This document shows positions 23,458-60,695 of a stretch of 64,000 nt of DNA, piece after piece (positions within the stretch are counted from its first letter, which is position 1; every line of letters starts with the position of its first letter). Source of the DNA: Candidatus Multivoradales bacterium. GTDB lineage: Bacteria; Acidobacteriota; Thermoanaerobaculia; Multivoradales; J023. The notes below the pieces were generated by a model. It did not search any database. It saw only the letters and a program-made list of their open reading frames with translations, and was not told the origin of the DNA. The position numbers and the translations under genes were made by a program. The stretch lies in assembly GCA_965248925.1 (NCBI GenBank), contig CBDFLE010000006.1:4672001-4736000 (forward strand), given 5' to 3'.

Positions 23458-23797
23458 GGCTTCGGTTCATCAGCCGCGGCCGGCGTGGACGTTTGTCGAT
23501 CTCAGCAGTTGCCGCGGGCGATAAAGCGGTCGAGCTGAGTGCCGGCCTGGCGCTGGACCTTGCCACGCAACCAGCCGCTCCAGCCGAGTAGGGTGCCGAC
23601 TGGCCCCAGCGCTTGACTTGCCCAGCGGTGGAAGTCGAAGTCGTCGCGGTGCTCAAGAATCAGGCCGTCTTTGAAGGTGAAGGTGGCCTGAATGCGATTG
23701 TCGACCCGGCGGCCGGTGGTTCCGAAGATGTATTTGGCTCGCCAGCTGGCGCTGCCTTGGTGGTCGTCGGCCTCGACTTCAGCAAAGGTTAGCTCAA
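23458..23797 (-). pseudogene. 5'-truncated second copy of the NTF2/SnoaL gene (3' part plus 44 bp downstream)
   Basis: Ungapped match to 24793..25132 (offset 1335); ELTFAEVEADDHQGSASWRAKY...FIARGNC*. Confidence 0.92.
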
Positions 23798-23903
23798 GCT
23801 GCCCTATGTCTACAACTTGTAGATCAAGGATTGAACAAGTGGAATCATGGAGCGGGGTCAGAAGTTGACTCGCCAGATGTGGGACGCGCACCGGCGAGTT
23901 GGA

Positions 23904-24557
23904 TCAGCTCGCCCTTTCTTTGTGGAGTTGGCGGCGAAGACTTCTCAGGAAGGCCTGCATCGAAGGAGGCCCCTTGGGCGGCGATAGTGGCGCGGATAGC
24001 AAGATAGCTTCTTCGAAGAGAGGATCGGGATCGACCCCCATGGTGGCGGCTTTGGTGTAGAGCTTGTCCAGAGCTACATGGCACTCACGCCAATCCCGGA
24101 CCAGATCCTCGATCGAGGCTGCCGCAAGGGCGCGGCGAGCTACGGCCTCCGCGTCGGGGTTTCGCTTTAGCTTCTTAGCGGATAAATGAATGTAGTCGAG
24201 TAGTATCGGCGAGAAGTTGTGCTTTGCTGCAACCTTGCGGATGTGCTCGCGACCCTCGTTATTCTCCTTGGGGTACCGGGCGCAGAGGCGGTCGAGAATG
24301 GGTGCCCAAATTGCCCATTTGCCGAATTGGCCGGCAGGAGCCTCGCACAATTGTTCCAGGCTTTCGCTGATAGGCACGTCGTCAATGTCTTGGGAAGTAG
24401 CTGACCTCCATTCTGCCAACCCCTCGGTATTGGGGAAGTTGAGCGCACCAAACCCGGTCAGAAAGCGCATTCTGAGAATCCTCGTTACCCAGGCGAGGGC
24501 CAGGAGCACGGCAACAATCTTAAGGATGCTCTCTATATGCTCGACCATCGCTTCCAT
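23904..24557 (-). CDS. Hypothetical protein with N-terminal TM helix
   Basis: 217-aa ORF, visibly more AT-rich than its neighbours; no family recognised. Confidence 0.6.
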   Translation of the reverse strand: MEAMVEHIESILKIVAVLLALAWVTRILRMRFLTGFGALNFPNTEGLAEWRSATSQDIDDVPISESLEQLCEAPAGQFGKWAIWAPILDRLCARYPKENNEGREHIRKVAAKHNFSPILLDYIHLSAKKLKRNPDAEAVARRALAAASIEDLVRDWRECHVALDKLYTKAATMGVDPDPLFEEAILLSAPLSPPKGPPSMQAFLRSLRRQLHKERAS

Positions 24558-24603
24558 CCTTGGCTTCTTCGAGTTAGGAAACCGACTTGGGTGGTCAGTC
24601 AGT

Positions 24604-24710
24604 CGCTCAGTCCCAGTCCAGCAAAAACGCCGATCTGGAATTCAGTGACCCGAGTTTTGCAGAAAATCTTTTCTTTCGCCAGGTCGGTCGACTGCGACAT
24701 CCAGGGGAAG
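24604..24710 (-). pseudogene. Degenerate copy of the nrdB 3' end
   Basis: FPWMSQSTDLAKEKIFCKTRVTEFQIG then frameshift; matches about 37580..37685 (FPWMSQSTDLAKEKNFFETRVTEYQIGASLDWD*). Confidence 0.9.
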
Positions 24711-24836
24711 CGCGCTCGGTAGGGAGAACCTTCGAGCATTGACTCTCTTAGACTTAGGTGGATTCGTGATAGTCGTGTTTTCGCTCGGTAGCGGCTTCGG
24801 TTCAGCAGCCGCGGCCAGCGTGGACGTTGGTCGATC

Positions 24837-25310
24837 TCAGTTGTTTCCGCGGGCGATAAAGCGGGCGAGCTGAGTGCCGGCCTGGCGCTGGACCTTGCCG
24901 CGCAGCCAGCCGCTCCAGCCGAGTAGGGTGCCGACTGGCCCTAGCGCCTGACGTGCCCAGCGGTGAAAGTCAAAGTCGTCGCGGTGCTCAAGAATCAGGC
25001 CGTCTTTGAAAGAGAAACTGGCCTGGATACGGTTGTCGACCCGGCGCCCGGTGGCACCGAAGATGTACTTGGCTCGCCAGCTGGCACTGCCCTGGTGGTC
25101 GTCGGCGGCGACTTCAGCGAAGGTGAGCTCGAATTCCTTGGCGCGTTCGCAGAGCATCGTCCACATGGCGCCGACTCGCTCCCCTTCGAGTTCGAAAGCA
25201 GGGTCGCGAAAAGTCGCCTGCGGGTGATAGCAGGCGGCCATCGTAGCGCCGTCCTGACGGGCAAAGGCGGTGTAAAAGCGGGTGATCAGCTCGGCATTGG
25301 GATGGCTCAA
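24837..25310 (-). CDS. NTF2/SnoaL-like (ketosteroid isomerase-like) protein
   Basis: LITRFYTAFARQDGATMAACYHPQATFRDPAF, HRDDFDFHRWARQALG. Confidence 0.88.
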   Translation of the reverse strand: MSHPNAELITRFYTAFARQDGATMAACYHPQATFRDPAFELEGERVGAMWTMLCERAKEFELTFAEVAADDHQGSASWRAKYIFGATGRRVDNRIQASFSFKDGLILEHRDDFDFHRWARQALGPVGTLLGWSGWLRGKVQRQAGTQLARFIARGNN

Positions 25311-25409
25311 GTGGGGCTCCTTCTGAGACTGGAATGGACCCCCATCCTACCTCCTGATCGATTGTCCTGAGGTAAGCGCGGTTAGAGTGCCGGGTAGCTC
25401 TCGCTTGGT

Positions 25410-27047
25410 TCAAGGCGACTTCGTTCTCACGTAGGCAATAGACCAATAGCGGTTAAGTGCATTTGTTCGCTCGGTTTGCTGGCTACCATCGGGCCAGCGG
25501 ATTTGTATTTCGACTTCACCGCCATAGTCGCCGAGACCGAAATGCAGCCGTAGGTCCGATTGACTGAGCACGCCACCACCGCTTCTTACCTGGCGCACCT
25601 GCGAATGTTCGCCCGTGTGCAGGCCGACGCGGGCGCCGATCGCTTGGCGGTTGGATGGCGGGCCGACCAGCACCAGGCCGAGCCAATGACCGGGATTGGC
25701 AGTGCGATTCTCAAGTAGCGCTGGCGGGCCGTTGGTGCGGGTCACCAGCAGATCGAGCCGGCCGTCGTTGTTGAAATCGCCGCTAGCCAGGCCTCGGCTG
25801 ACCGCGGCTTGCTGCCAAGGCCCGGTCGCCGCCGCTGGGCGAAAACTGCCGCCGCCCAGGTTCAGAAACAGCTGATCGGGCTGGGCGTAGGTCACCCCGG
25901 GTACGAACCGTTCGATGTTGTCCAGCACATGGCCGTTGGCTACGGCGAGGTCAAGGTCGCCGTCGTTGTCGGCGTCGAAGAGTTCGATTCCCCAGCCCAG
26001 GCGGCGGTAGGTCTGAGCATGCAGACCCGCTGCACGGGTCCGGTCGGTGAACAATCCGCCGCCGAGATTCCTGTAGATGCTGTTGGGTTCGAGGGAGAAA
26101 TTGCTGACCACCAGGTCTTCGCGGCCATCGCCGTCAAGATCACCCAGCGCGACTCCCATCCCGGCCAGGGGCTCGCCGGCCTCTCCTAGCACCGCGCCAG
26201 AGAGCAGGGAAGCATCCTCGAACTGCCCTTGCCCAGAGTTGAGATACAGACGGTTGGGGGTGCCGTCGTTGGCCACGTAGAGATCGAGGTCGCCATCGAG
26301 GTCGAGGTCGGCCAGGACTACTCCTAAGCCCTTCTCGGTCGCCTGGCGACGAATTCCCCGCTCGCTGGCCTGGTCGCTGAAGGTACCGTCGCCATGATTG
26401 ATATAGAGCGCATCGGGGACGCCGGCAAAGCGGCTGGGGTGGCAGTAGTAGTCGAGGGCACGGGCCCGGTCTGAGCACCGTGGGGGATTGCTGAAGGAGA
26501 CGCTGAGATAGCGGCTGACGTAGAGATCGAGGTCGCCATCCCCATCGACATCGCCAAAGGCACAGCCCACGCTCCACAGGTCGCCGCCATCGATGCCAGC
26601 GCGCTTCGCCACCTCTTCGAAGCGGCCTTCGCCGGTCGCTCGGTAGAGACTATCGGGGCCAGCATTAGTGAGAAATAGATCGAGTCGGCCGTCGCCGTCC
26701 GCATCGCCGATACACAGCCCCATGCCATAGCCCTGATCGTCGACCCCCGCCTGCTTTGCCACTTCAACAAAACGGCCCCCGCGATTCTCATACAGGGCGT
26801 TGCGTGGCGCTGGCTGTAGCTGGGAACCTGGAGTCGCGGCACCGTTCAATAGGTAGATGTCGAGGTCGCCGTCACCATCGAAGTCGACAAAGCCGCCGCC
26901 GCTGGCCACGGTCTCGATCAAATATCGTCGGCCTGAGCGGCCATCCTGATGCTTGAAGTCGAGCCCCACGTCGGCCGCCACATCGATGAAGGAGGGATCG
27001 GTGGCCACCGCGGCGGCGGTTATCAACAGCAGGGCGATCAGGCTCAT
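25410..27047 (-). CDS. CRTAC1-family protein (FG-GAP/VCBS repeats plus ASPIC/UnbV)
   Basis: Repeated DxDGDGDLDLY motifs; C-terminal AIGARV...SGGGVLSQSDLRLHFGLG...IRWPDG; signal peptide. Confidence 0.9.
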   Translation of the reverse strand: MSLIALLLITAAAVATDPSFIDVAADVGLDFKHQDGRSGRRYLIETVASGGGFVDFDGDGDLDIYLLNGAATPGSQLQPAPRNALYENRGGRFVEVAKQAGVDDQGYGMGLCIGDADGDGRLDLFLTNAGPDSLYRATGEGRFEEVAKRAGIDGGDLWSVGCAFGDVDGDGDLDLYVSRYLSVSFSNPPRCSDRARALDYYCHPSRFAGVPDALYINHGDGTFSDQASERGIRRQATEKGLGVVLADLDLDGDLDLYVANDGTPNRLYLNSGQGQFEDASLLSGAVLGEAGEPLAGMGVALGDLDGDGREDLVVSNFSLEPNSIYRNLGGGLFTDRTRAAGLHAQTYRRLGWGIELFDADNDGDLDLAVANGHVLDNIERFVPGVTYAQPDQLFLNLGGGSFRPAAATGPWQQAAVSRGLASGDFNNDGRLDLLVTRTNGPPALLENRTANPGHWLGLVLVGPPSNRQAIGARVGLHTGEHSQVRQVRSGGGVLSQSDLRLHFGLGDYGGEVEIQIRWPDGSQQTERTNALNRYWSIAYVRTKSP

Positions 27048-28396
27048 TCTTTTCCCTTTGGCGCCAGTCGTTGGTGCCGGCGGAAGTTGTCGAGTGCCGC
27101 CGTGTTCTGGGGGGCGCGGTCGAGCAGAGAGCTGGCGGCCTGTCGATCACCAGCCGTCAGTAAGACCTTGGCAAGTTCGAGTCGCCAAGGGACGTTCCAA
27201 GGCGCCAGATCCAGTGCCCGAGACAGCGACCGGCGGGCGCCGCCGAGGTTGTTGGTCACCTGCTCGAGTCGGCCGAGCAAGAGGTGGTAGCGGGCGAGGT
27301 GAGGATCTAGCTCGAGTCCGGCCAGCAGCAGCTCCCGAGCTTCGTCGAGCTGGTCGCTGGCCAACAAGGTCGAGGCCAGGCCCGCACGAGCATGTTGGCT
27401 CGCCGGCTGCTCGGCGAGCGCCTGGCGAAAGAGCTGCTCTGCCAGATTTCGCTGGTCCCGTCGCAGGAGGAGGTCGGCGAGTCCGAGACGCTCGTCCACA
27501 CTCAGGGCCGGGTCTTCGATGAGGTCGGGCAGCGCTAGCAAAGCCTGGTCGACGAAGCCTGCTTCGAGCCGCAAGCGTGCTTGCCGCAGGCGAATCGCTA
27601 GCGAGTCCGGCAAGTCGTGGGCTAGTGACCGCAGGACTCGTAGGCTCTCGATGGCCGACAAGGGGCCACCTTGCGGCCCGCCGTGGGACATTTCTGTCAG
27701 ACCTGCATGGATCTCCAAAGCTCGCTTTGCCGCTTCTCGCTGGCCGGCGGAAAGTCGCAGGCGCCCCAACAAATACCAATTTGCAGGTGCCAACGGATCG
27801 AGCCGTGCCGCCCATTCCGCGTGCTGTTGGGCTCGTCGGCGATCGTCGAGTTGGTGGGCGATCGACGCCGCCAGTGCCTGGCACCGGGCATCTTGGCGCC
27901 GGCCATCTTCAGTATCCAGGCAGGGCGCCAGGGCCTCCCACGCCTCGTGCGGGTTCGCCAGTGCCAGCGCCTCGGCCAGCAACAGGGCCTGTTCGACGCC
28001 CGGTTCGAGTTGTGCGGCGTGGCTTGTAGCCCGTAGTCCGTCGCCGAGAAGCAACAGCGCCTTGATATAGCGATGGCTGATCTCGGGATCGTCGGCGACC
28101 TGCTCGAGATAGCGCTCGAGGGCCGGCAGCGCCGGTTCCAGGCTTTGCCCAGGACCACTCAGCCAGGCGAGGGCCAATCCGCGCAATGACTCCAGTCGTG
28201 GTGGGTGGTTCGCCAAATCACTGCTCGCCAAATCACTGGCGTAGTACACCCGAGCCAGGTCGTAGCGCCGTTCGGCGAAGGCGTTGCGGGCACGGTGGTA
28301 CTGGTCATCAGAAGATTCTTCTCGGCCACCGCAGGCGAGGGCCAGGGCGAAGCCGAGGGCCAGAACTAACCCAGAACATCGGTGGACCCAGCTCAC
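27044..28396 (-). CDS. TPR-repeat lipoprotein
   Basis: LALAC lipobox; Ala/Leu-rich TPR units (ARLDP...WYLLGRL, LELDP...HLLLGRL). Confidence 0.8.
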   Translation of the reverse strand: MSWVHRCSGLVLALGFALALACGGREESSDDQYHRARNAFAERRYDLARVYYASDLASSDLANHPPRLESLRGLALAWLSGPGQSLEPALPALERYLEQVADDPEISHRYIKALLLLGDGLRATSHAAQLEPGVEQALLLAEALALANPHEAWEALAPCLDTEDGRRQDARCQALAASIAHQLDDRRRAQQHAEWAARLDPLAPANWYLLGRLRLSAGQREAAKRALEIHAGLTEMSHGGPQGGPLSAIESLRVLRSLAHDLPDSLAIRLRQARLRLEAGFVDQALLALPDLIEDPALSVDERLGLADLLLRRDQRNLAEQLFRQALAEQPASQHARAGLASTLLASDQLDEARELLLAGLELDPHLARYHLLLGRLEQVTNNLGGARRSLSRALDLAPWNVPWRLELAKVLLTAGDRQAASSLLDRAPQNTAALDNFRRHQRLAPKGKE

Positions 28397-30627
28397 CGAC
28401 CTGCTCCAGGTTTCCCAGCCGTGGAGGTGCGGAGCGGGTCGCCTTCGCGCAGGTACCAGATCTGATCCATCGCCACCTGGTGGAAGGTCTGGCGCGAGTC
28501 ACTCGCCGGCCACCAGACCTCGATCTCGGACAGTGCGGTCGCCTCGCCCAGGCCGATCTCCTGCTGCAAGCTGGAAGAACCAAAGCTGCCTCCGGTGCCG
28601 ACTGTGGCGTGGACCTGGCGCGGTCCAGAGGGGGTGGCCAGTTCGAGCCGTAGCCGCACCCCGATCGCCGAACGATTCTCGCGCACTCCTTCGAGCCGCA
28701 GGGTAATCCAGTGTTGGCCGTGGCCGGGGTTCTCGAACAGTGCATTGCTGAAACCGTCGCCGGAGTAGGCCCCGCCGAGCACGGCGTAGAGATCCTGGTC
28801 GCCATCGCCATCGAGATCACCAAAGGCGACGGCGTGGCCCTTCTGCAAGTGACCGAAGCCACCCGCCGTGGTGACCTCGCCGAAGCGGCCGTCGCCGTGG
28901 TTGAGAAACATACGGTTGGGCACGATGGCGCGCAAATCCGGGGCGCCGGTGCCGACGTAGAAATCGAGCCAGCCGTCGTTGTCGAGATCCCCGAAACCGC
29001 TGCCCATGGCGTAGAGCACCTTGTCGAGCCCCGCCTGTTGGGTGCGGTCGCTGAAAGTGCCGTCGCGGTTGTTGTGGTAGAGGCGTGGCGTTTCGCCAGG
29101 GCTAGCGGTGCCGAGGTAGTCGGCGGCGACGTTGGCAGCGCCGGCCGCCAGATATTCGGCGTCGTAGGCAGCGACCAGGAGGTCGAGCCAGCCATCGTTG
29201 TCGTAGTCGAAGAACCAGGTGGGAAAGCTGTAGCGTGGTTCGCCGACGCCGGCTTCGGCGGTCACTTCACGAAATCTACGGCCGCCATCGGCCGCCGCCT
29301 CGTTGTGCAGCAGGAGGTTGGGTTCGAGCATCCGGGTGAGGTAGAGGTCGAGCCAGCCGTCGTTGTCGTAGTCGCCCCAGACCACCCCTTTGACATAGCC
29401 CACTACCGCCGCGCCGACCTGCGCCGCGATCTCGGTGAAGGTGCCGTCGCGGTTGTTGCGATACAGCTCGCAGGGATGGCGATCTGCACCCAGCGATTCG
29501 TTGCCGATCATCAGATCGAGCCAGCCATCGTGATCGAAATCGCCCCAGGCCGCGGTTTGGGTCGGGTGAAAACTAAGCAGGCCGGCGGCTACTGTTACCT
29601 CTTCGAAACGACCCCCCAGGTTGTGCAGCAACGAGTTCGGATGGCGGCCTTCGGGCCCCAGCCAGGCACCGCGAAGCACCAAAATGTCCGCCAGACCATC
29701 GTTGTCGTAGTCGGCGTGGATCAGGTTCAGGCCACCGCCGAGGCCGCTCAGCCCGGCGCTGGCGGTGCGCTCTTCGAAGGCCAGTCGATCTTGGCCAGCG
29801 TCGTCACCACGGTTGCGGAAGAACCGCAGGGGGTCGAGCAGACCCCACGACGAGGTCAGGATGTCGAGGTGGCCGTCGCCATCCAGATCTTCGACCACCA
29901 CGCCGCCGGCCAAGCCGAATGCCGCGACTCCGGCATCGGCCGCTACATCATGAAAGCGGCCGATGTCGTCCGTCGAGGCGAAAACCGCTGGATCAATCCG
30001 CCAAGGCTCGGCCACCCCTTGTGGATACTCACCGACGGTCATTGCCGCCAGGTTGAGCAGCCAGCGGGCGTCGAGATCGTCGGGGTCTTCCCGCAGCAGG
30101 GTAGTCAACTCCGCCAGCGCTCGCCGCGAAGCTCCTTGCCGTCGGTGGAAGCCCTCAGCGGCGATCGGCGCCAGGCACGAGGCGCTGGTGTGATCGGCGA
30201 TGCAGTTTTGCTGCTCGCCAAGGCGCAAGTAGGCCAGCGCTAGCAAGGAGTGCAGCTGGCGGCGCAGCTCTGGGAGATCAGAATCCAGGAACTTCAAGGC
30301 TCCTTCGAGGCGGGAGATGGCTGCCTCTGTCCGCCCGGCGCGCAGCTCTTCCCGCGCCGTGCGCAAGGTTGCCTTGGCTTGGCCGGAGGGATCGGTGGGC
30401 GACTCGAGAGCAGCAAAGTGGTCGGCGCGAGCCTGGTTGAGATAGACATTGCGCAGGGGTCGGGAATTGGCAGCAAGGAGTCGCAGCCGTCCAGCCATCA
30501 GCCTGTTACTGGCCAGTACCGAGTGCTCATCAATGGTCGCGGGTCGGCAGCCAACAAGGGTGAGAGCGATCGCCAGGCCGGCCAGGCAAAGGCCGAATTT
30601 TAGACTGTGGAATTCCTGCTGTACCAT
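28393..30627 (-). CDS. CRTAC1-family lipoprotein with N-terminal helical domain (FG-GAP plus ASPIC/UnbV)
   Basis: LVGC lipobox; YLRLGEQQNC...C; DYDNDGWLD repeats; GFGHLQKGH; SAIGVRL...GGSFG...EIGLG...WP. Confidence 0.9.
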   Translation of the reverse strand: MVQQEFHSLKFGLCLAGLAIALTLVGCRPATIDEHSVLASNRLMAGRLRLLAANSRPLRNVYLNQARADHFAALESPTDPSGQAKATLRTAREELRAGRTEAAISRLEGALKFLDSDLPELRRQLHSLLALAYLRLGEQQNCIADHTSASCLAPIAAEGFHRRQGASRRALAELTTLLREDPDDLDARWLLNLAAMTVGEYPQGVAEPWRIDPAVFASTDDIGRFHDVAADAGVAAFGLAGGVVVEDLDGDGHLDILTSSWGLLDPLRFFRNRGDDAGQDRLAFEERTASAGLSGLGGGLNLIHADYDNDGLADILVLRGAWLGPEGRHPNSLLHNLGGRFEEVTVAAGLLSFHPTQTAAWGDFDHDGWLDLMIGNESLGADRHPCELYRNNRDGTFTEIAAQVGAAVVGYVKGVVWGDYDNDGWLDLYLTRMLEPNLLLHNEAAADGGRRFREVTAEAGVGEPRYSFPTWFFDYDNDGWLDLLVAAYDAEYLAAGAANVAADYLGTASPGETPRLYHNNRDGTFSDRTQQAGLDKVLYAMGSGFGDLDNDGWLDFYVGTGAPDLRAIVPNRMFLNHGDGRFGEVTTAGGFGHLQKGHAVAFGDLDGDGDQDLYAVLGGAYSGDGFSNALFENPGHGQHWITLRLEGVRENRSAIGVRLRLELATPSGPRQVHATVGTGGSFGSSSLQQEIGLGEATALSEIEVWWPASDSRQTFHQVAMDQIWYLREGDPLRTSTAGKPGAGR

Positions 30628-30730
30628 CGAGATCTCGCCGCGTGGACAGTAAAGTAGCCCTTGAGCACCCCTTGAGGTGCCCGCCAAGACCGGCGGTCGT
30701 TGCAGAGGACTTCACTGAGTATAGGACGAG

Positions 30731-32461
30731 ATGAACTTGATCACGAATTACCCATCCAGGCGTGTGAACCCGGCGCTGCAGAGACGATTCTGGAGCTTTG
30801 CAAGAGGGTTGGCGAGTGGCCTGGTCTGCTCGGCCTTGCTTGCGGACTGTGTGGCCACCTCTAAGTGCCCGACGCCACTCCTCCGCTACCTTGGCGGTGA
30901 AGTCACGGCTGCTGAGTATCACAGCTGGCTAGAGCTTACCGAGGGCGAGGACGATGCCGACCGGCGGCAGCAGACACTGACCACTATCGCCGTTCAGGAG
31001 GCTCTGGCCGATGCGGCCCGCAAGCGCGGCGCGGCGGGGCAACCCCCTCTACGTTGGGCGCTACTCAACCTCGAGAGCCATCTCTTGGAGAGGGCTCTGC
31101 GGCTTGAAATGGCGAGTGAAATCAGCATCGACGAGCAGCAGATCGCCACTTGGTTGGAGCAGCATCGAGAGCGCATGGATCGGCCCCGGCGGGTGCGTCT
31201 AGAGAATATTTTCAAACAGGTCGACGACGCAGCAGACCTCAATGCCTCGCGCTTGGCGATGGCAGCGATTCGCCAACGGCTGCTCGCTGGTGAAGATTGG
31301 GCCGCGGTTGCATTGGCTGAGTCCGATTCTCAGACCAGATTTCGCCGTGGCAGCATCGGCTGGGTCAAGCCGGGTATTCTCGATCCGGCGATCGAAAGTG
31401 TGGCCTTCGCTCTCGCTTCAGGCGAGATCAGCGAAGTGATCGAAACCGAGGCCGGCTTGACTCTCCTACGCTGCGAGAGGGTCGAGGAAGAGCAGCGGCC
31501 TGACGTGCTGGAAAAGCGCCAGCGAGCGCAGCGCAATTTGCGTCGTCAACAGAGGCAAGAGCAGTGGCAAGCGCTGAAGTCAGAATTGCTGGCCTCGGTT
31601 AGTTTTGACCGCGAAAAGGCTCGGCTGCTCTCTACCCCCAAAGACTCGGTGATTGTTCGCGCCGAGGGTGGTTGGAGTCTGTCGCTGGCGGCGATCGAGG
31701 GGCTGCTGCGTTTTCGCGGAGTTCACCGTCCACTCGCTGATCTGCCTGAAGAGAGAGTTGGCGAGCTGCTCGAAACTCTCGCCACCCGGCTGCAAGCGGC
31801 CGACCGAGCTCGCTCTATGGGTCTGGACCAGGATCGGGAACTCCAAGCCAAACTACATTGGCAGAGGCTGCTGGCGCTGGCCGCCGACGAATTGGGACAC
31901 CGGGTCGAAGTGCGCTTCGAGTCTCTGAGCGAAGAGCAGATCCGGGCTTACTTCGAAGACCATCGCGAAGACTTCCAATGGCTCGAGAGCTTTCGCCTGG
32001 AGGCGATTTCGATGCGTGCGGAAGCGGCCGAATTGCGCCAGCGCTACGCCTTTGCCCAGCGCCTCGAGGGCGATTTGCGGGCGAGTCGGATCAGCTTTGC
32101 TGAGGCGGCTCGGCGCTATTCACAGCTGCCTTCGGCCAGTCGAGGTGGGGCGCTCGGGTGGCTCGATCGGCAGCAGGTGGCGGCCCTGGGGCCTTTTCTT
32201 TTCAAGAGCGTGACCAGGCTTGCAGCTGGCGAGCTTGGTCGGCTGGTGCAACAGCCCGACTCACTGCCTCGAGACGGTCATACCTTATGGCTGGTGCGGC
32301 TGTTGGAGAAACGCGCGGCCCGACCTATGAGTTTTGCCGAAGCGCGTCGGCACGCCGAGAATGCCCTGGGCAACGAGCAGACCCGAGAGATTCAGCGCCA
32401 GCTAGAAGAGGAGCTGGTCACGGAACTCGAACTCCGGTGGATTGGGGAGCCTTCGCCGTAG
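30731..32461 (+). CDS. Parvulin/PpiC-type peptidylprolyl isomerase (SurA/PrsA-like), two rotamase domains
   Basis: ESDSQTRFRRGSIGWV...AFALASGEISEVIET; FAEAARRYSQLPSASRGGALGWL; start uncertain. Confidence 0.78.
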   Translation: MNLITNYPSRRVNPALQRRFWSFARGLASGLVCSALLADCVATSKCPTPLLRYLGGEVTAAEYHSWLELTEGEDDADRRQQTLTTIAVQEALADAARKRGAAGQPPLRWALLNLESHLLERALRLEMASEISIDEQQIATWLEQHRERMDRPRRVRLENIFKQVDDAADLNASRLAMAAIRQRLLAGEDWAAVALAESDSQTRFRRGSIGWVKPGILDPAIESVAFALASGEISEVIETEAGLTLLRCERVEEEQRPDVLEKRQRAQRNLRRQQRQEQWQALKSELLASVSFDREKARLLSTPKDSVIVRAEGGWSLSLAAIEGLLRFRGVHRPLADLPEERVGELLETLATRLQAADRARSMGLDQDRELQAKLHWQRLLALAADELGHRVEVRFESLSEEQIRAYFEDHREDFQWLESFRLEAISMRAEAAELRQRYAFAQRLEGDLRASRISFAEAARRYSQLPSASRGGALGWLDRQQVAALGPFLFKSVTRLAAGELGRLVQQPDSLPRDGHTLWLVRLLEKRAARPMSFAEARRHAENALGNEQTREIQRQLEEELVTELELRWIGEPSP

Positions 32462-32500
32462 TTCGGTGGCGGCCGGTTGGCTGTTCTTTTCGAGCCAACG

Positions 32501-32528
32501 AAAAAGGCGCCCCCGCAGGGACGCCTTT
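32501..32528 (-). terminator. Rho-independent terminator of the 32552..33355 gene
   Basis: Minus strand AAAGGCGTCCC-TGCG-GGGGCGCCTTTTT. Confidence 0.75.
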
Positions 32529-45156: not shown

Positions 45157-45165
45157 CGACCTTGC

Positions 45166-51876: not shown

Positions 51877-52081
51877 TGCACGCCAGAGCGATTTCAGGTC
51901 TTGCTCGAACCGGGTCAACATCCTTGGGTGGGCGGCGGGGGTAGCTGTATGATGTGGCCACTGCCAGTCAGCACCGTGAGTTTTCCTTGCCGCCTAGACC
52001 ACGGTGGTAACACCGTCTTGTAGAGGACAGTCGTTTGTTGAAAACACCGTCGCCAACGCTCGCTGCCGAGAGGTCATTTGG

Positions 52082-52774: not shown

Positions 52775-52775
52775 G

Positions 52776-54688
<1,913 letters not shown>

Positions 54689-54689
<1 letters not shown>

Positions 54690-55447
54690 TGAACCTCAAG
54701 CTTCACGTATGGCGCCAACCCGGACCTGGAGCGGCGGGCAAAATGGTGGTTTACGAGGCTAACGATGTTAGCCCGGACATGTCCTTCTTGGAGATGCTTG
54801 ACGTCACCAATGAGCAGATGATTGCCCGTGGTGAAGAGCCCATCGTTTTCGACCACGATTGTCGCGAAGGCATCTGCGGTGCATGCAGCATGATGATCAA
54901 CGGTGTCGCCCACGGTCCTGAATCCGGTACCACCGCTTGCCAGCTGCACATGCGGCATTTCAATGACGGTGATGAGATCTACATCGAGCCCTGGCGCGCC
55001 GCGGCCTTCCCGGTGCTCAAAGACCTGATGGTGGATCGTTCGTCGATGGACCGGATCATCGAAGCCGGCGGTTACGTCTCGATCGGCACCGGCTCGGCCC
55101 CCGATGCCAACGAAATCCCAGTACCCAAGCAAGCTGCCGACCTGGCCTTCGAGGCGGCGGCCTGCATCGGCTGCGGCGCCTGCGTGGCCCAATGCCCCAA
55201 CGGCGCCGCCCAACTGTTCACCGCCGCCAAAGTCTCCCACCTTGGCTTGCTGCCCCAAGGTCAGCCCGAGCGCTGGCAGCGGGCCACCGACATGGTGGCG
55301 CAGATGGAAGCCGAAGCCTTCGGCAGTTGCACCAACCACCAAGAATGCGAAGCGGTCTGCCCCAAGGAGATCTCGGTGAGCTACATCGCAAGGATGAACC
55401 GCGATTTTCTCACCGCCAAATTCAAGGGTGTCAAGACCTCGGGTTGA
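54689..55447 (+). CDS. sdhB: Succinate dehydrogenase/fumarate reductase Fe-S subunit
   Basis: [33 protein letters not shown]. Confidence 0.96.
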
Positions 55448-55710
55448 AGAGGCTGGACTGATGGCCGATTTGGTTCGAAGCGATCGGCATCCGCGGAAGA
55501 GGCTCCGGTCCAGTGAAGGGAGCAGAGAGGCGGAGCCTCCAGCTGGTGGCGCAAATGGAAACAAGGGCGTTAAGACTCTGGCTAGAGCCGGGTGAGCAGG
55601 GACTAGGGTGCCTCGCTCAGAAGGTCACTCTCTTTTGGTTCCTTTCTGCTGCTGGTCAATTATCCGGGTCTGGCATGGGTCTGGATCCCGGCCACAAAGG
55701 TCACTCAGGA

Positions 55711-55739
55711 TTGACACCAGGCGCCTGGTAGCCTAGTCT
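55711..55739 (+). promoter_or_regulatory. Sigma70 promoter with palindromic operator for the relE-type locus
   Basis: TTGACA-17bp-TAGTCT with ACCAGGCGCCTGGT palindrome in the spacer. Confidence 0.7.
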
Positions 55740-55764
55740 ACTGACTGGCAGAAAGGAGCGTGTG

Positions 55765-56004
55765 ATGGCGACGGCAACCGTGAGAATCCCGGCGGAAAAA
55801 AGAGATATCCTGCGGATTATCGCCGGGATCGAGAAGACCGAGATGAAGGAGATCCTCTCCGGGCTTATCGACGAGTACATCGGGCGGCATCAGGAAACGC
55901 TGGACCTTCTTTCCCGACCCGAGTGGGTCGACATCATCGCTCGCGGCAAGCAAGAGGTGGACCACGGCATCAAGGGCAAAAGGCTCGATGAGCTGGCGGA
56001 TTGA
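55765..56004 (+). CDS. Antitoxin (RHH-like)
   Basis: Small ORF after AAAGGAG; acidic C-terminus; overlaps the RelE-like gene. Confidence 0.72.
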   Translation: MATATVRIPAEKRDILRIIAGIEKTEMKEILSGLIDEYIGRHQETLDLLSRPEWVDIIARGKQEVDHGIKGKRLDELAD

Positions 56005-56254
56005 GGTCAAGCCGTCCGCCGAGAAGCAATACCTCAGGCTCGACAGAATCACTCGCCGACGGATCAAGGAAACCTTGCACGAGCTCGAAAACGCCGAGCT
56101 GCCGCTGTTTCACCCGCGGCTGCGGCCCCTGACGGGAAAACTCAAAGGGGACTACAGGGTCAGGATCGGGGGCTGGCGAGTCCTCCTGACACCTGATCGG
56201 GAGTCCGGGGTGCTCCAGGTCTACGCCGTCCTTCCCCGTGGCGGTGCGTACTGA
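55988..56254 (+). CDS. RelE/ParE family toxin
   Basis: WRIEVKPSAEKQY...PLTGKLKGDYRVRIGGWRVL...PRGGAY. Confidence 0.88.
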   Translation: MSWRIEVKPSAEKQYLRLDRITRRRIKETLHELENAELPLFHPRLRPLTGKLKGDYRVRIGGWRVLLTPDRESGVLQVYAVLPRGGAY

Positions 56255-56310
56255 TCGGCCCTGATGACGTCTGAGCCGACGCCCGACCGGCCCGAGTCTG
56301 ATCTTGGCGA

Positions 56311-57759
56311 TCACTCCCAGGGGTCTGGAAGGGCCAGCTCCGCTTGCCGCCAGCGCCAGGCGTCCCAGCCGATCAACCCCCAGATCAGGCCATGTTCCAA
56401 GATCAACCACCAGGCCCTCTCGACACCATCGATGTAGATCAGATATGACAGCAGCGCCAGACCGGTGGCGAGGGGCCAGGCGCGAGCGCCGCTTGCCACG
56501 GCGAAGGGTAGGGCCCAAAGTAGGTACCAGGGCATCACCGTGGGGCCGAGCAGGAGGAAGGCGGCGAGCAGGAGGTAGATCTGCCGCGGCCATCGATCCT
56601 CAGCAACGCGGCGGCGGAGTAGCCACAGCAAGATCAGTAGGGTCGAGACCAGCCACAGGGCGCTGGCCCAGCCGGCACCGCGCCCCGGCAGCCAACGTTC
56701 GAAGATGTTCTGGGCCAGCAACCAGATGCCTGGATTGAAAGTCCAACCAGCACCGAAGTCGCTCAGGGCCTGCAAGATTTGCCGCCAGCTGGCGATGAAA
56801 GGCAGGTAGCCGAGAGCCACGGTGAGCGCCAGCACTGGCCATTGCCGCGGCCGGCAGCGGCGCAGGAAGAGGCCGGCCAGCACGATGGGTGTGAGCTTGG
56901 CCAACACGCTGAGGCCAAAGACCGCCAAGGCCAGCTTGCGGCGTCCGCCGTGCATCGCCAACACCGCCGCCAGCAACAGAGGAATAACCAATGCGTCGAC
57001 GTGGCCGGAGCCGGCGAGTTCTTTGATCAACAACGGATTCCAGGCGTAGAAGATCACCTCTTCCGGCCTTCTCCCGAGACGTAGTAGCAGCAGATAGAGC
57101 AGCCAGCAGGCGATCAGGTCGAGCACTACCAGGGCGCTCTTGAACAGCAAGACGCTGCCCGGGGCCAAGCGGTGGCAGGCGGCGAAGAATGCTTGCGCTA
57201 GCGGTGGGTAGACCGTCAAGTTCTCGCGATAGGCGAGGTTTTCGAAGATCTCTGACCATGGTGGATCGACGAACAGCTCAGCAGCGGCGGTATCGTTAGT
57301 GAAGCTGAGGTCTTCCCATTCCTCCGGCGTGTGGCGGTAAGGATCGACGCCCGAACTCAGCAGGTGGCCGTCCCACAAGTAGCGCCAGATGTCCTGGTCA
57401 TAAAGTAGAAAGCGTTGGTAGCCGATCCCTTGCGAGCTGAGGTCGGTGAGCGTTGCCGCGCGGCGATCATCAGGCAGCAGGCCGGCGGGTAAGAGTAGCA
57501 AGCGAAACAAGGCGGCGGCCGCAAAGATGCCGCCTAGCACCCAGCGATTTCCAGTCGGTAAGCGGCGAGACCAGGTGCCGGCCAGCAGATAGAGCCCGAA
57601 GAGCAGCCCAAATATAGCCAGAAACGAGCCCACATCTCGGCCCCCATTCCAGCCTCGCAGGCCGCGGGATGCCAGCGCAAAACCTGCTGCCATCAAGACT
57701 CCGATGGCCACCACGAGGCGGCTGGCGGCGGTCTTAGAGCACGAGTGGAGTAGGTGCAT
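56311..57759 (-). CDS. GT-C membrane glycosyltransferase (GT87/DUF2029-like)
   Basis: DIWRYLWDG...GVDPY, TVYPPLAQ, YAWNPL...GHVD, PTVMPWY; start uncertain. Confidence 0.82.
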   Translation of the reverse strand: MHLLHSCSKTAASRLVVAIGVLMAAGFALASRGLRGWNGGRDVGSFLAIFGLLFGLYLLAGTWSRRLPTGNRWVLGGIFAAAALFRLLLLPAGLLPDDRRAATLTDLSSQGIGYQRFLLYDQDIWRYLWDGHLLSSGVDPYRHTPEEWEDLSFTNDTAAAELFVDPPWSEIFENLAYRENLTVYPPLAQAFFAACHRLAPGSVLLFKSALVVLDLIACWLLYLLLLRLGRRPEEVIFYAWNPLLIKELAGSGHVDALVIPLLLAAVLAMHGGRRKLALAVFGLSVLAKLTPIVLAGLFLRRCRPRQWPVLALTVALGYLPFIASWRQILQALSDFGAGWTFNPGIWLLAQNIFERWLPGRGAGWASALWLVSTLLILLWLLRRRVAEDRWPRQIYLLLAAFLLLGPTVMPWYLLWALPFAVASGARAWPLATGLALLSYLIYIDGVERAWWLILEHGLIWGLIGWDAWRWRQAELALPDPWE

Positions 57760-57914
57760 GGCAAGTGGGGCTACAGAGGTCGCAAGCAGCAGCGGATTGC
57801 GCCAGATTAAAACTACCGGGCAGCCTACCGCGTAGTTAGCCATGGAGCGACCCGCCAATCTTAGCCCGCGGTGCGAGCCGCATCGAAGACGACCCACTCA
57901 AAGGAACTTTCACC

Positions 57915-58301
57915 ATGCGACGTTTGACTCTGCTGATCGCCTGTCTCGCCCTCATTCTGCCAACCGCCGCTGCCCTTGCCTCAGGTAGCTCTGGGGCTGG
58001 CATTCCCCGAAGTTCGGGCGGCGAGCAGCCCTTCTCAGTTACCAAGCAGCTCAAGTGCACGATCATCGAAGTTCAGGCCAACAACCTGATCAAAGTGCGC
58101 GACGACCGGAGCGGCAAAGAGAGCCTGATTCAGCTCTCCGAGCAGATTCCGCTAAAAGCTCAGAACAAGAAGCAGTTTGGCGGTCGCAAGAACTTGCAAG
58201 CCAGCGATCTAGTAGAGGGTCACCGGATCCTGGTCACCAAGCGCACCGACGCCGAAGTGATCGTGCGCATCAAAGTGCTCAAGGACAAGGCCAAGGCCTG
58301 A
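57915..58301 (+). CDS. Hypothetical secreted basic protein
   Basis: AAAGGA RBS, signal peptide, short beta-rich domain. Confidence 0.7.
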   Translation: MRRLTLLIACLALILPTAAALASGSSGAGIPRSSGGEQPFSVTKQLKCTIIEVQANNLIKVRDDRSGKESLIQLSEQIPLKAQNKKQFGGRKNLQASDLVEGHRILVTKRTDAEVIVRIKVLKDKAKA

Positions 58302-59557
58302 GCCGCTCAGGGGCGGTGAGATCGAGTTTCTCGGTGAACACTCCGCCCCAAGGATCGATCGCTTCGACGGTTACTTCGCTGGCGCCTGGCCGCGGAGCGG
58401 CGTAGAACAAATGATCGGTGTCGAGGGGCTCGACCCAGCTGGCGTTGCCTAGCGGCCGGGTGGGGCCTTCGTAGAGTGAGACGGTGAGTGGGTCGCGGCC
58501 TCGGCGGCGGCTCATTTCGCCGCGGCGTTCGCCGTCTTCGTACCAGTAGACTTGCCAGCTGGGATGCCAGTTCCAGACGTTGGCGATGATCTCGTCGGGA
58601 TTCTGCGGCTCGCTGCCGGGGCGGTAGAGGCGCAGCTGTTTGTCGGCCGCCAGGCCGGAGGCTTTGAAGCGCCACGACAGCTGTTCGCCCCGCACTTCGT
58701 ACACATGGTAGCCCTTGGGGGTGCCGTCCCAACACACTGGTCCTGTCCACCAGGCGCCGCAGGCGGTGGCCAGCACGTGCTCGTGGCAGCCGGCGTGCAG
58801 AATGTGCTCGTTCTCGTGGGTGTGGGCAGTGAGCAGATGGGCGGAGTAGGGCTCGAGCAACTCGTAGAGGCGGTCACGATTGGCGACCCGCGATTGATTG
58901 CGTTTGAATCCTGGTAGCCGGTCGGTGATCGTGCTGGCGAAGGGAATGTGCGCGAACACCACCACCTTGGAGCCGCCCTCTACCGCTTTGAGGTCGGCCG
59001 CCAGCCAATCGAGCTGCGGGTCGTCGAGGTAACCGACGTAGCCGTTGCCAATCCAGAAGACGTTGTCGAGCACCACGTAGTGCACCGCGCCGTGGTTGAA
59101 GGAGTAGTAGGTGGGCCCGAAGGCGGCTTCGAATTTGCGGCTGTCGCGCACCGCGCCGGCCGCTTCGTCGAGGTCGTGGTTGCCGATCAGCTGGAAGAAG
59201 GGCACGCCGGCAAAGGCCATCGAAGTCGAGGGGTCGGTGAATCCCCGAGGTGCTGGTGTTGGAGAGGGGTATGCGGCAGCCCCGCGGCAGGCAGACGAAG
59301 GCGAAACGTGCCTGCCGGTCACTGGCCAGCTCGAAATTACCTTCGCTGTCGGTCGCCACGGTCGACAGGCCGTCGGAGATGATGACTTTAGCTAGCCCTT
59401 GGCCGTAGAGAGTGACCCGGCCGCGAATCCTCGCCGGGCGTAGCGCTCAGCCGGCGGTGCCATGTAAGGCGGACGCGGCGCAGATGCTGAGGAAGTGGCG
59501 TCGGCTTACAGCAGATCCGCCGCTTTGCGGTGGAGTGGTGGATGATCTGCGGCTCAT
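58279..59557 (-). pseudogene. Tat-exported calcineurin-like metallophosphoesterase pseudogene
   Basis: SRRHFL Tat motif, in-frame TGA at 59447-59449, ISDGLSTVATDSEG N-domain, then frame jump to IGNHD...HIP...AHTH...CGAWW...DGTPKGY; the first metal-binding motifs are missing. Confidence 0.8.
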
Positions 59558-59621
59558 CGGGGCACCTTCTTTCAGAATCGACTGTCTTGACAAGGTTTGA
59601 GGTCTAGAGGGAGACTACTGT

Positions 59622-59855
59622 ATGCCGAATGACGACGACAGATCCGTTGAACCGATCGCCTGGGCCAGTGAGCGATTGCCGGCGCGACGGCAGGCTACCG
59701 ACGAGCTGGCCGCCCAATGGCTGTTCGAGGGTCTGCGAGTCGCTGTCTGCCAGCATCTCGAGCCGCAGTCGGCGCTACAGTTCGATGCTGCCTGGCAGGC
59801 TCGGGTCGACCCCTCTCGAGGTCTCGCGATTCCCGCTTTAACCCAAAACCACTGA
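59622..59855 (+). pseudogene. N-terminal fragment resembling adenosylhomocysteinase
   Basis: IAWASERLP...FEGLRVAVCQHLEPQSA resembles the AhcY start (I.WA...MP...L.G.RI..CLHLE.KTA); then breaks off. Confidence 0.55.
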
Positions 59856-59863
59856 TCGTTGCC

Positions 59864-60343
59864 ATGTCAGAGAAGCCAAAGAAAGCAGGTCCGATCGGCC
59901 GGACGCTGCGGCTGATCGTCGCCATTTGGCTGGTGGTCATCGACATCCCCGTGCTGGTCAAAGCCGGCAGCGGCTACAACCTTCGCATGCTCGGCTTGGT
60001 GATCGCTCTGACCCTCTTCTACATGTTTCTGCACTGGATGGTTTCCCGGCATCTGCGAAACCTCGACGGCAGGTTGGGAGCGATTCTCGCTGTCACACCG
60101 GTGTTTCTGCTTTGGTTCTACGGCCAGGGAGGAGGACTCCTGTTTGGCCAAGGGGAGGGGGGTACGGCTGCCATCACCTACCTTGCCCTGTCATTCCTGA
60201 TCGACGTCGTAAGGTCGGACTCCGGCTGTGAAGTGATGGCAATTCCCGGCCTTATCCTCGGCGAGCGCACCCACCTCGACTGCATCGTTTTTTGCCCGGT
60301 CGACATCCTGGAAGAGAGGCCAAGCAGGGGCGAGGATCGGTGA
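59864..60343 (+). CDS. Hypothetical membrane protein with conserved-looking Cys motifs
   Basis: GPIGRTLRL, about four TM helices, SGCEVMAIP...CIVFCPVD. Confidence 0.7.
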   Translation: MSEKPKKAGPIGRTLRLIVAIWLVVIDIPVLVKAGSGYNLRMLGLVIALTLFYMFLHWMVSRHLRNLDGRLGAILAVTPVFLLWFYGQGGGLLFGQGEGGTAAITYLALSFLIDVVRSDSGCEVMAIPGLILGERTHLDCIVFCPVDILEERPSRGEDR

Positions 60344-60400
60344 GATGGGCTAGGGCTAGGTGGGTGCCGGGCGACTCGGGGAAAGTCAACCAAAGACGCG

Positions 60401-60695
60401 GACCTCGCTTTCGAAGCGGCGGCCGACATCAGCTGCAGTGCTTGCTTGGTGCAGGGTCCCAACAACGCCGCCCAGCTGTTCACCGCGGCCGAAGCCGCGT
60501 ACCTCGGCCTGCTGCCCCAAGGTCAGCCCGAGCCCTTGCGGCGGGTTACCGACACGGTGGCGGAGATGGAAGAGCAGGCCTTCGGCAGCTACACCAAGCA
60601 CCAAGATTGCGAGGCGCTGTGCCCCTGGGCATCCCGGTGACCTTCATCGCCCGGCTCAACCGGCCAAGCTCAAAGGGGTCAAGAACTCCGGCTGA
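60401..60695 (+). pseudogene. Degenerate copy of the sdhB 3' end
   Basis: [30 protein letters not shown]...[10 protein letters not shown]...FGSYTKHQDCEALCP / VTFIARLNR / KGVKNSG*; matches 55139..55447. Confidence 0.93.

Follow-up and report, generated by a model that had tools for sequence, protein, structure and literature searches.

A 64,000-nucleotide stretch of the genome of a Candidatus Multivoradales bacterium (assembly GCA_965248925.1, contig CBDFLE010000006.1, positions 4,672,001 to 4,736,000; hereafter the window) carries three intact genes, nrdB, a SnoaL/NTF2-like gene and sdhB, each followed on its own strand by accessory DNA, here called cargo, and then by a displaced copy of its 3' end. 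The same architecture recurs throughout the genome, with a strong excess of 3' over 5' fragments, a homology edge close to the stop codon and, at most sites, no recombinase gene. We tentatively read these arrangements as additive, integrase-free, homology-driven insertions directly behind conserved genes.

Repeats in the window

A repeat finder and a sensitive self-blastn of the window, in which non-self matches of at least 60 bp were counted, agree with each other. Self-blastn returns four such matches, namely the three same-strand repeat pairs that had been noticed from the letters alone and one FG-GAP module. R1 (23370-23795 versus 24706-25130, minus strand) is 86.6% identical over 426 bp, R2 (24599-24710 versus 37575-37685, minus strand) is 84.8% identical over 112 bp, and R3 (55136-55449 versus 60398-60697, plus strand) is 75.8% identical over 314 bp. 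All three are thus direct repeats of target sequence longer than 30 bp, and they flank inserts of 910, 12,864 and 4,948 bp, each below 20 kb. Differences are scattered along the entire repeats, and the longest identical runs measure 38, 19 and 24 nucleotides (nt). The nrdB, SnoaL and sdhB genes are all full length with complete Pfam matches, which indicates that the 3' ends of the targets have been restored.

The nrdB and SnoaL repeats

The intact nrdB gene (37583-38578, minus strand; 331 amino acids (aa); Pfam Ribonuc_red_sm, 1.6e-89) is 80-87% identical to its relatives at the protein level and lies directly downstream of nrdA, encoding the ribonucleotide reductase large chain (38657-41590, minus strand; Pfam Ribonuc_red_lgC, 1.1e-191, with ATP-cone and lgN), an order conserved in all eight relatives' loci examined. 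Homology of the tail copy within nrdB (R2a, 37575-37685, minus strand) ends 8 nt past the stop codon. The displaced tail remnant (R2b, 24599-24710, minus strand), delimited by the repeat finder, self-blastn and alignment, follows 12.86 kb of cargo (24711-37574, minus strand; G+C content (GC) 0.632). At the far end of this cargo is the intact SnoaL/NTF2-like gene (24837-25310, minus strand; 157 aa; Pfam SnoaL_2, 2.9e-17), whose last 294 nt form R1a (24706-25130, minus strand) together with a spacer and a dead copy of the head (nt 1-33) of a DUF3179 gene. In its partner R1b (23370-23795, minus strand), the remnant of the SnoaL tail and the spacer are followed by the head of the intact DUF3179 gene (22354-23403, minus strand; Pfam DUF3179 on both halves), which is situated downstream of the entire structure. 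The SnoaL remnant is an open reading frame (ORF) of 129 aa (23502-23891). Between R1a and R1b, the 910-bp insert encodes the orphan ORF217 (217 aa; 23904-24557, minus strand), for which we found no Pfam match, no usable ESM Atlas match and no confirmed relative in a metagenome scan.

Read along the minus strand, the order is nrdA, nrdB with R2a, 11.6 kb of genes, SnoaL with R1a, R2b, ORF217, R1b and the remainder of the DUF3179 gene. Because R2b abuts the end of R1a at 24706/24710, the nrdB and SnoaL repeats are end blocks of one nested structure, and what had been described as three occurrences amounts to three repeats in two structures. Likewise, the description of a copy of the 3' end only, finishing at or just past the stop codon, fits R2 (8 nt) and R3 (2 nt) but not R1, which extends 131 nt beyond the SnoaL stop, through the spacer and into 33 nt of the DUF3179 gene. 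The nested unit spans 12,980 bp, from nt 893 of nrdB to nt 33 of DUF3179, and its distal end is fused to a second proximal start: at 24706-24710 (minus strand) the DUF3179 head, broken at nt 33, can be read directly into the nrdB tail, beginning at gene nt 893. Only the end blocks R2 and R1 recur in the second copy; the 11.6 kb between them is unduplicated, and 0.8 kb of unrelated DNA is in its place.

A distal end joined to a proximal start is the type of junction expected of tandem duplication. By this account, a segment of this genome was duplicated in tandem and the second copy was then deleted or decayed, so that the 3' fragment is the left end of the second copy and no foreign DNA is involved. 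The fusion at 24706/24710 is exactly such a junction, and the nrdB cargo looks native, with a GC at the 63rd percentile of 3-kb windows and a codon-usage score like that of the rest of the genome. However, the second copy in the window lacks the 11.6 kb and has instead 0.8 kb of unrelated, GC-poor DNA; the 910-bp insert with ORF217 has a GC of 0.560, at the 2nd percentile. For the nrdB unit, a tandem duplication with loss of 11.6 kb and gain of 0.8 kb is about as parsimonious as two recombinations with the DNA of a relative.

The other genes of the nrdB cargo encode, by Pfam, a sulfatase-TPR protein (35381-37516), two peptidyl-prolyl isomerases (PPIases; 33684-35384 and, on the plus strand, 30731-32461), two FG-GAP/ASPIC proteins (28393-30687 and 25410-27047) and a TPR protein (27044-28396), together with ORF267 (267 aa; 32552-33355). 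Many short, diverged repeat modules (families D2, D4, D6 and D8) are common to the FG-GAP/ASPIC genes in 25410-30687. At and just past the 3' end of the PPIase ORF at 33684-35384, a 17-nt unit is arranged head to tail (33572-33729), for which the repeat finder reports seven overlapping 56-nt copies, five of them at 100%. Short-read contigs break at this array, depth doubles, and one run has small insertions or deletions at 33682-33685; the copy number of the unit may vary in the population.

The DUF3179 gene contains an in-frame TGA at 23068-23070 (AAVW-TGA-PLANTAVVY), which separates the two halves that match the family. A 7-bp hairpin begins 14 nt downstream, with a fold that is not significant (z -1.4), and a tRNA-SeC was found in the genome by aragorn. 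Judged from the sequence, this TGA is a candidate selenocysteine codon or a recent nonsense mutation.

The sdhB repeat

The sdhB gene (54689-55447, plus strand; 252 aa; Pfam Fer2_3 and Fer4 families) is 67-80% identical at the protein level to those of 24 relatives and is preceded by sdhC (52004-52774, plus strand; Pfam Sdh_cyt) and sdhA (52758-54689, plus strand; Pfam FAD_binding_2 and Succ_DH_flav_C). The tail that recurs (R3a, 55136-55449, plus strand) runs from gene nt 448, just before the Cys-rich Fe-S motif, to 2 nt past the stop codon. Its remnant (R3b, 60398-60697, plus strand) is decayed, with deletions of 1 and 13 nt and the loss of two Fe-S Cys codons. The 4.95 kb of cargo between them (55450-60397, genes on both strands) encodes, by Pfam, a GT87 glycosyltransferase (56311-57897, minus strand) and a metallophosphoesterase (58279-59322, minus strand) beside three ORFs without a family (ORF128 at 57915-58301 and ORF208 at 59717-60343, both on the plus strand, among them). 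This cargo also looks native (GC 0.622, 45th percentile). None of its genes occurs within 1.5 kb of sdhB in the 24 relatives, and no second duplicated block was found at the locus.

Short-read support for the junctions

Short-read contigs from four public runs were aligned to positions 22300-38800, a range that has the sdhB junctions outside it. The runs are metagenome-like and derive from one sample, probably the source of the assembly, so their support is not independent. A 1250-bp contig present in three of the four runs spans 23646-24895 with no differences and covers the left edge of R1b, ORF217, the nrdB remnant and the fusion at 24706/24710. The border between the nrdB stop codon and the cargo at 37575 is crossed, also with no differences, by contigs in all four runs (33683-38800 or 36760-38800). 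Unitigs break only at the exact 86-bp sub-repeats 23560-23646 and 24895-24981, because a de Bruijn graph must break there, and the block order across these sub-repeats therefore rests on long-range assembly. In run X4 there is nearly no depth at 23953-25605 while the flanks are covered; about 69% of that run was read, it has other holes and it yields no bridging contig, and we draw no inference from it. Other contig joints, among the FG-GAP modules (25.8-29.7 kb; short sides of 20-36 nt), were rejected as cross-matches of paralogous repeats.

An assembly derived from a metagenome could imitate displaced tails by joining sequences of different strains, and both the metagenome-like, single-sample nature of the four runs that have the sequence and the unitig breaks within the exact parts of R1 would be in keeping with such an artefact. 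On the other hand, every novel junction checked is spanned with no differences in three or four of the four runs, the copies differ by 13-24% and hence are not collapsed strain variants, and 31 sites, on contigs of 2.4 and 5.2 Mb, are built in the same way. We therefore consider an assembly artefact extremely improbable. The expectation that reads would uphold the junctions is borne out for the nrdB/SnoaL structure by contigs of this one sample.

A genome-wide census of displaced gene ends

We compared the 7.98-Mb genome (six contigs) with itself by blastn (word size 11, E ≤1e-8), which gave 16,246 non-self high-scoring segment pairs (HSPs). The 5,664 genes used were called by a codon-usage ORF caller and are not a curated annotation; their starts are those of the longest ORF, which could conceal some 5' fragments. 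HSPs were retained if they were 70-1500 bp long, if both copies were otherwise unique, if one copy lay within a gene of at least 150 aa and covered no more than 70% of it, and if the partner was not itself the corresponding part of a longer gene. Pairs were counted where both copies shared a strand and lay no more than 60 kb apart.

In this census, 3' fragments are found downstream of the intact gene in 31 cases and upstream in one, while 5' fragments are found downstream in two and upstream, the mirror case, in four; internal fragments number seven downstream and two upstream. The excess of 31 downstream 3' fragments over four mirror 5' fragments is significant (two-sided binomial p=3.5e-6). 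Omission of the uniqueness filter gives 46 versus 9. A further 11 intergenic pairs contribute at most two or three possible 5' cases, and if these gene-head pairs and the two upstream fragments classed as "mid" are added, the count is still about 31 versus 8. The prevalence of 3'-only duplicates over 5'-only ones, which the original prediction had proposed to count by a genome self-BLAST, is thus a general pattern of this genome. Cases 0, 1 and 3 are tied to mobile-element genes on small contigs or lie at an integrase gene, and two pairs of cases are nested (20 and 21, and 26 and 27 in the window), so that about 26-28 sites are independent overall.

The right edge of the homology falls within -7 to +18 nt of the last base of the stop codon at 23 of the 31 sites, with a median spacer of 62 nt to the next gene, and the edges are sharp even in pairs that are 93-99% identical. 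Left edges fall anywhere within the genes. The repeats are 72-1184 bp long, case 21 at 1078 bp and gdh at 606 bp being among the long ones, and their copies are 75-99.9% alike. In the 150-nt flanks of the 31 sites, no 8-mer occurs at more than five sites, and we found no shared junction motif. A GGTGGCACC-like word noticed at a few of the junctions, about twofold enriched genome-wide by a rough expectation (183 and 193 copies), was rejected as a recognition motif. We also rejected a diversity-generating retroelement, in which a 3' end and a downstream copy have a similar layout, as mismatches involve all four bases in 31 of 31 pairs and are not confined to adenine.

A locus with three copies

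Two genes are each followed by two successive downstream remnants. At one of these loci (C6:4470885-4488064), a 209-aa TPR gene has remnants at 5.4 and 16.2 kb that share the same left edge, with unrelated cargos; these cargos (region C6:4470001-4489000) contain RadC, TPR, CarboxypepD_reg and RHS-repeat genes. The first 18 informative sites pair remnant 1 with remnant 2, and past nt 132-146 the sites pair remnant 1 with the gene. Accordingly, the first 150 nt of remnant 1 are 99.3% like remnant 2 and 88.0% like the gene, while the rest is 96.2% like the gene and 85.4% like remnant 2. The crossover preserved at this locus lies within the tail, midway along the repeat, and not at a fixed core or at the left edge. 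The locus could have arisen if one element-borne tail recombined twice in succession with the resident tail, each time by a single crossover, which would leave a gene composed of old-left and new-right parts, a remnant 1 of new-left and new-right parts, and a remnant 2 of new-left and old-right parts.

Target genes, cargos and recombinases

The intact genes are mostly housekeeping or otherwise ordinary genes, including alaS, hemB, a thrC-like gene, an NAD-glutamate dehydrogenase gene, a fadB-like gene and a gene for a GDP-mannose-dehydratase-like epimerase, as well as a psuG-like gene and genes for a GHMP kinase, a sigma factor, TauE and others. The genome as a whole has many sulfatases, FG-GAP/ASPIC proteins and giant genes, a content reminiscent of Planctomycetota. 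The cargos range from 328-910 bp for the shortest to 25 kb of ordinary genes. Thirteen cargos are no longer than 3 kb, and four of these contain toxin-antitoxin (TA) genes (HepT+MNT, PIN, UPF0175+DUF3368 and ParE+Phd). Another contains, directly behind alaS (C6:1435501-1441700), a fused BsuBI/PstI-Eco57I restriction-modification (RM) gene, which encodes 857 aa with an Eco57I-type methylase and a BsuBI/PstI endonuclease domain; the flanking 130-bp repeat is 99.2% identical, and beyond it, in the final 29 nt of the tails, about half of the positions agree. In comparison with 3-kb windows of the genome, the GC of 25 of the 31 cargos is below the median and that of 12 is at or below the 15th percentile.

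Profile searches of the genome gave 37 Phage_integrase, 4 Resolvase and 76 rve matches. A tyrosine or serine recombinase is encoded in the cargo or within 3 kb of it at three of the 31 sites and at none of the remaining 28. Transposases of the rve type occur inside four of the larger cargos, and Pfam matches identify a split IS256-type transposase in case 29 and an rve_3 fragment in case 11. The absence of an integrase claimed for the window holds: a scan of 13 predicted cargo genes (the ORFs at 55762-56004 and 55988-56254 being unscanned) revealed no recombinase or transposase family, and the window range has no match to PF00589, PF00239 or PF00665. Nor did Pfam reveal restriction or modification genes in the window cargos. 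Elsewhere, large repeated arrays (C5:921000-985000, C6:3501000-3518000 and other places) contain at least 14 near-identical copies of a tyrosine recombinase gene whose open frame is about 372 aa long.

Genomic islands and other integrative elements are known to restore the 3' end of their target, be it a tRNA gene or one of some protein genes, by means of an element-encoded tyrosine or serine recombinase and a short identical core. They leave an intact gene, the element and a partial 3' copy on the same strand, the very order seen here, and site-specific elements that carry a replacement 3' end and whose integrases were lost or act in trans would account for the 3' bias, for tails restored exactly to the stop codon and for repeated events with the same left edge. 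The 37 Phage_integrase matches, including the repeated family with the open frame of about 372 aa, also speak for such elements. In contrast to those islands, 28 of the 31 sites, 99%-identical pairs included, have no such recombinase in or within 3 kb of the cargo, and no core motif is shared: some 30 different target genes are involved, without a sequence common to either junction. Moreover, the repeats reach from 72 to 1184 bp, the exchange point of the three-copy locus lies in the middle of the repeat rather than at its left edge, and cargos of 328-910 bp are too short for an integrase. Elements of this kind are therefore an improbable source, to which we give little credence.

Substitutions between tails and remnants

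Pooled over the 31 pairs, differences at codon positions 1, 2 and 3 number 204, 177 and 424, and the ratio of nonsynonymous to synonymous substitution rates (dN/dS) is 0.285. A decay model, in which the copies are identical at the start and one is functional while the other drifts, leads to an expected dN/dS of about 0.5. It was simulated for each of the 24 pairs with at least eight differences. Eight of these have an excess of silent differences (p<0.05), four of them, the SnoaL pair included, with p=0.0025; the other 16, the sdhB pair included, fit an identical start and neutral decay.

The differences in the window had been described as mostly synonymous or conservative, as expected of two alleles that both evolved under selection and not of one drifting copy. 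This is apt for the SnoaL pair, which has 17 silent and 7 changed codons and a dN/dS of 0.11 and for which decay is rejected (p=0.0025). Support is weak for the nrdB pair, with 6 silent and 6 changed codons (9 synonymous and 6 nonsynonymous changes at 15 differing sites; dN/dS 0.12, p=0.06). The description fails for the sdhB pair, with 19 silent and 30 changed codons (dN/dS 0.29, p=0.09); the changes assigned to the branch of the sdhB remnant by means of the relatives are distributed 19:14:13 over the codon positions, which is plain decay. The picture is thus mixed, in that SnoaL looks allele-like, nrdB is marginal and sdhB appears to have simply decayed, and genome-wide the two-allele reading is favored by the eight pairs and not by the other 16. 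As an alternative to two alleles, the SnoaL remnant, with its open 129-aa ORF, may still be under selection.

Relatives and a second genus

We searched two sets of 31 genomes of relatives and 24 genomes of the family, all of other genera. For nrdB (8 loci) and sdhB (24 relatives), the upstream partners are kept and the downstream neighbors are not those of the window. Across genera, the 112-nt nrdB tail is 72-84% alike. An sdhB match is present in 23 of the 24 genomes of the family survey; there is none in G007, which is 88% complete. The sdhB remnant is nearest to the tail of its own genome (73.5%; any relative ≤69.8%), and the intact sdhB tail and 5' part have similar identities to the relatives, so that comparing identities with relatives does not demonstrate a foreign origin for either part. 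A metagenome scan with ORF217 gave 64 pattern matches, none of them confirmed, and one with the SnoaL protein gave 35 loci, all at or below 59% aa identity, with no close relative among them.

Genome G012, of another genus, has a second sdhB tail fragment (L056:1707-1844, contig C625), the sole such case among the 24. This fragment is 100% like the genome's own sdhB apart from an internal deletion of about 185 bp. Its left edge is about 7 nt from that of the window remnant and its right edge is at the stop codon. The flanks are unrelated to the window: the fragment is located between a KpsF-like gene and a gene with a shikimate-kinase domain. The contig that contains the intact sdhB of G012 ends 2 nt past the stop codon.

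Allele-like pairs and differing downstream neighbors bear on a linear form of homology-facilitated illegitimate recombination (HFIR). Here an upstream anchor such as nrdA or sdhA would pair with incoming DNA, the whole gene and its cargo would be imported, and the far end would be joined illegitimately inside the resident gene, whose 3' tail survives. The substitution pattern of eight of the 24 pairs suits this route, which has already been proposed for effector displacement in the type VI secretion system (T6SS; PMC5361080), and a stop-codon edge would follow if the gene but not its neighbors were shared, as is the case in relatives downstream of nrdB and sdhB. It predicts random left edges, however, whereas the two remnants of one locus share theirs and G012 and this genome nearly do. 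Neither the mosaic remnant nor the DUF3179 head beside the nrdB remnant is predicted, and the route is symmetric for 5' and 3' ends. We judge it to be quite unlikely.

Signs of segmental duplication

At up to eight of the 31 sites, sequence from one end of the cargo, its first or last 400 bp, is found again on the downstream side of the remnant; these blocks are long at five (gdh, AAA/PIN, hemB, nrdB and kinase-FGE) and short or weak at three, and there is no second block at the other 23. The hemB locus (C6:4059301-4065600) retains five collinear blocks of 83-98% identity, in which a 3.3-kb segment with an M1-peptidase gene is present a second time in shrunken form; this is a decaying segmental duplication. 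The other sites with recurring cargo blocks have the appearance of segmental duplications or of loci to which DNA with homology to the resident region was added.

These loci speak for tandem duplication, as do cases 20 and 21, which are collinear, the even spread of changes in the sdhB remnant and the 16 pairs that fit decay from identical copies. As a general explanation it meets several difficulties. Heads of genes would be expected as often as tails, against a count of 31 to 4, and homology should continue past the stop codon into the copy of the cargo, whereas it ends within -7 to +18 nt at 23 sites, young pairs included. A second block is absent from the same number of sites, the short cargos are GC-poor TA and RM genes, and eight of the 24 testable pairs reject the model. 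Tandem duplication thus seems unlikely to be the general cause.

A proposed model of insertion behind conserved genes

Additive, integrase-free insertion by homology directly behind conserved genes fits best because it accommodates the stop-codon edge, the 3' bias, the lack of a recombinase and of a motif, the foreign-looking short cargos, the crossover within a tail and the recurrent left edges. The incoming molecule would consist of a gene tail that starts somewhere inside the gene and extends a few nt beyond the stop codon, followed by cargo, and would most simply be a circle or a permuted fragment, probably with DNA from another strain. Host homologous recombination, presumably dependent on RecA, between the incoming and the resident tail (a Campbell-type, "ends-in" single crossover) would insert the entire molecule. 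The upstream tail copy would then complete the working gene, with the cargo behind its stop codon, and the other tail copy would be left downstream as a dead remnant facing the old neighbor. The resulting pair of direct repeats could pop the unit out again or accept more units, so that arrays with a common left edge would arise. One unit of 12,980 bp in the window would have entered behind nrdB, with the DUF3179-head/nrdB-tail fusion as its closing junction and the SnoaL repeat as a second homologous block of the same structure, while the sdhB repeat would be a separate, older event.

The edge at the stop codon would arise because donor and recipient share the conserved gene but not the sequence behind it, if this is so; in relatives, a conserved gene with differing downstream sequence is what is seen for both nrdB (8 loci) and sdhB (24). 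The Campbell-type route is symmetric in principle, and the 3' bias therefore requires an added assumption of selection. A silent 3' fragment would be harmless and long-lived, whereas a 5' fragment, which keeps its promoter and start codon, would make a costly truncated protein.

Besides this added assumption, several observations weigh against insertion of incoming DNA. No empty site or donor was found among the relatives of other genera examined, and no circular form or excision joint was seen in the short-read contigs, which do not include raw reads. The nrdB cargo looks native, the cargo recurs past the remnant at up to eight sites, and the 16 pairs that fit decay imply that de novo target duplication or tandem duplication fits them equally well. 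The fragment in G012, a fragmented metagenome-assembled genome, needs confirmation. With these points taken into account, we give insertion behind conserved genes a little less than an even chance. The general gene-capture route that had been proposed from the window is supported in part, by a pattern that is common, integrase-free and 3'-biased, with cargos that often look foreign and a tail exchange at one locus; at up to eight sites, pieces of the cargo are kept in the second copy too, as in a segmental duplication.

Relation to known systems

The founding paper on "insertion with long target duplication" is reportedly that of Nobusato et al. in 2000 (Gene 259:99). Furuta, Abe and Kobayashi (2010; PMC2853133) describe insertions of every type of RM gene that are not accompanied by another mobile element. 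The inserts are below 20 kb, have direct target repeats of 46-423 bp and contain no transposase or integrase; a start or stop codon is covered by the repeats "in many cases", the copies are 90-100% alike, and empty sites are shown in sister strains. Their paper also discusses tRNA-gene cases, leaves the mechanism open and proposes a cycle of insertion, amplification and release via the repeats. The window resembles these cases in its long direct target repeats, its inserts below 20 kb and its lack of a mobility gene. In contrast to their RM cargo, the cargos here extend from TA pairs to 25 kb of ordinary genes, with an RM gene only behind alaS. Here there are also 31 sites in a single genome with a 31:4 bias toward 3' ends, and repeats that are 75-99.9% alike, some of them allele-like, and no empty site could be identified among the relatives of other genera. 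Laboratory movement of an RM system, as described by Takahashi et al. (2011; PMC3031569), was linked to insertion sequences and not to long duplications.

A second precedent concerns toxin tips. Kirchberger et al. (2017; PMC5361080) propose that a new T6SS effector-immunity module enters by an HFIR-like insertion, which moves the old 3' end and its immunity genes downstream; the authors cite Jackson et al. (2009) for the same idea in Rhs genes and de Vries and Wackernagel, Prudhomme et al., and Meier and Wackernagel for HFIR. Such C-terminal displacement shares with our sites incoming DNA that is anchored by homology upstream and supplies a new 3' end with cargo, a displaced old 3' end and arrays of orphaned 3' pieces, and the three-copy TPR locus, beside RHS-repeat genes, is a good fit to it. 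However, the displaced tips of Rhs and T6SS systems are there described as variable toxin domains with immunity genes, with the homology upstream of the tips, whereas the displaced pieces here are homologous tails of housekeeping genes (nrdB, sdhB, alaS, hemB, gdh and the thrC-like gene) and the new DNA begins past the stop codon.

Campbell-type insertion-duplication by non-replicating circles is laboratory practice. Merodiploids that form during natural transformation are reported by Johnston et al. (2013; PMC3784515). In both, host homologous recombination alone yields partial duplications around added DNA, as we propose here; the products arise in the laboratory or are short-lived, and they are not known as a standing, genome-wide and 3'-biased pattern such as the one reported here.

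The capture route is therefore not new as a kind, since insertion with long target duplication and C-terminal displacement by HFIR are already in the literature (PMC2853133 and PMC5361080). What is new is the scale in one genome, the 31:4 bias toward 3' ends, the fixed edge at the stop codon, the range of cargos and the preserved crossover. A literature search that covered few subscription journals and no supplements returned no report that such remnants at housekeeping genes are biased toward 3' ends across a genome, nor any report of them with TA genes as cargo.

Significance

Where DNA has recently been gained, displaced remnants indicate its borders, and they can be taken for small genes by gene callers, as with the 129-aa SnoaL ORF. 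How islets free of integrases and transposases, with TA pairs, RM systems or defence genes, enter chromosomes is poorly understood, and insertion with long target duplication has been without a mechanism since 2000. A broader proposition, which we consider possible but somewhat unlikely, is that the 3' tails of housekeeping genes serve as portable, integrase-free landing pads. Units of tail and cargo would pass from strain to strain and even from genus to genus; host homologous recombination would integrate them, and they would make the gene that they enter whole again and accumulate in arrays. This would be a general entry route for TA, RM and accessory genes into large genomes and would be the mechanism behind insertion with long target duplication. 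With about 30 sites of all ages in one assembly, a 3' bias, a stop-codon edge and one preserved crossover, the question is now testable.

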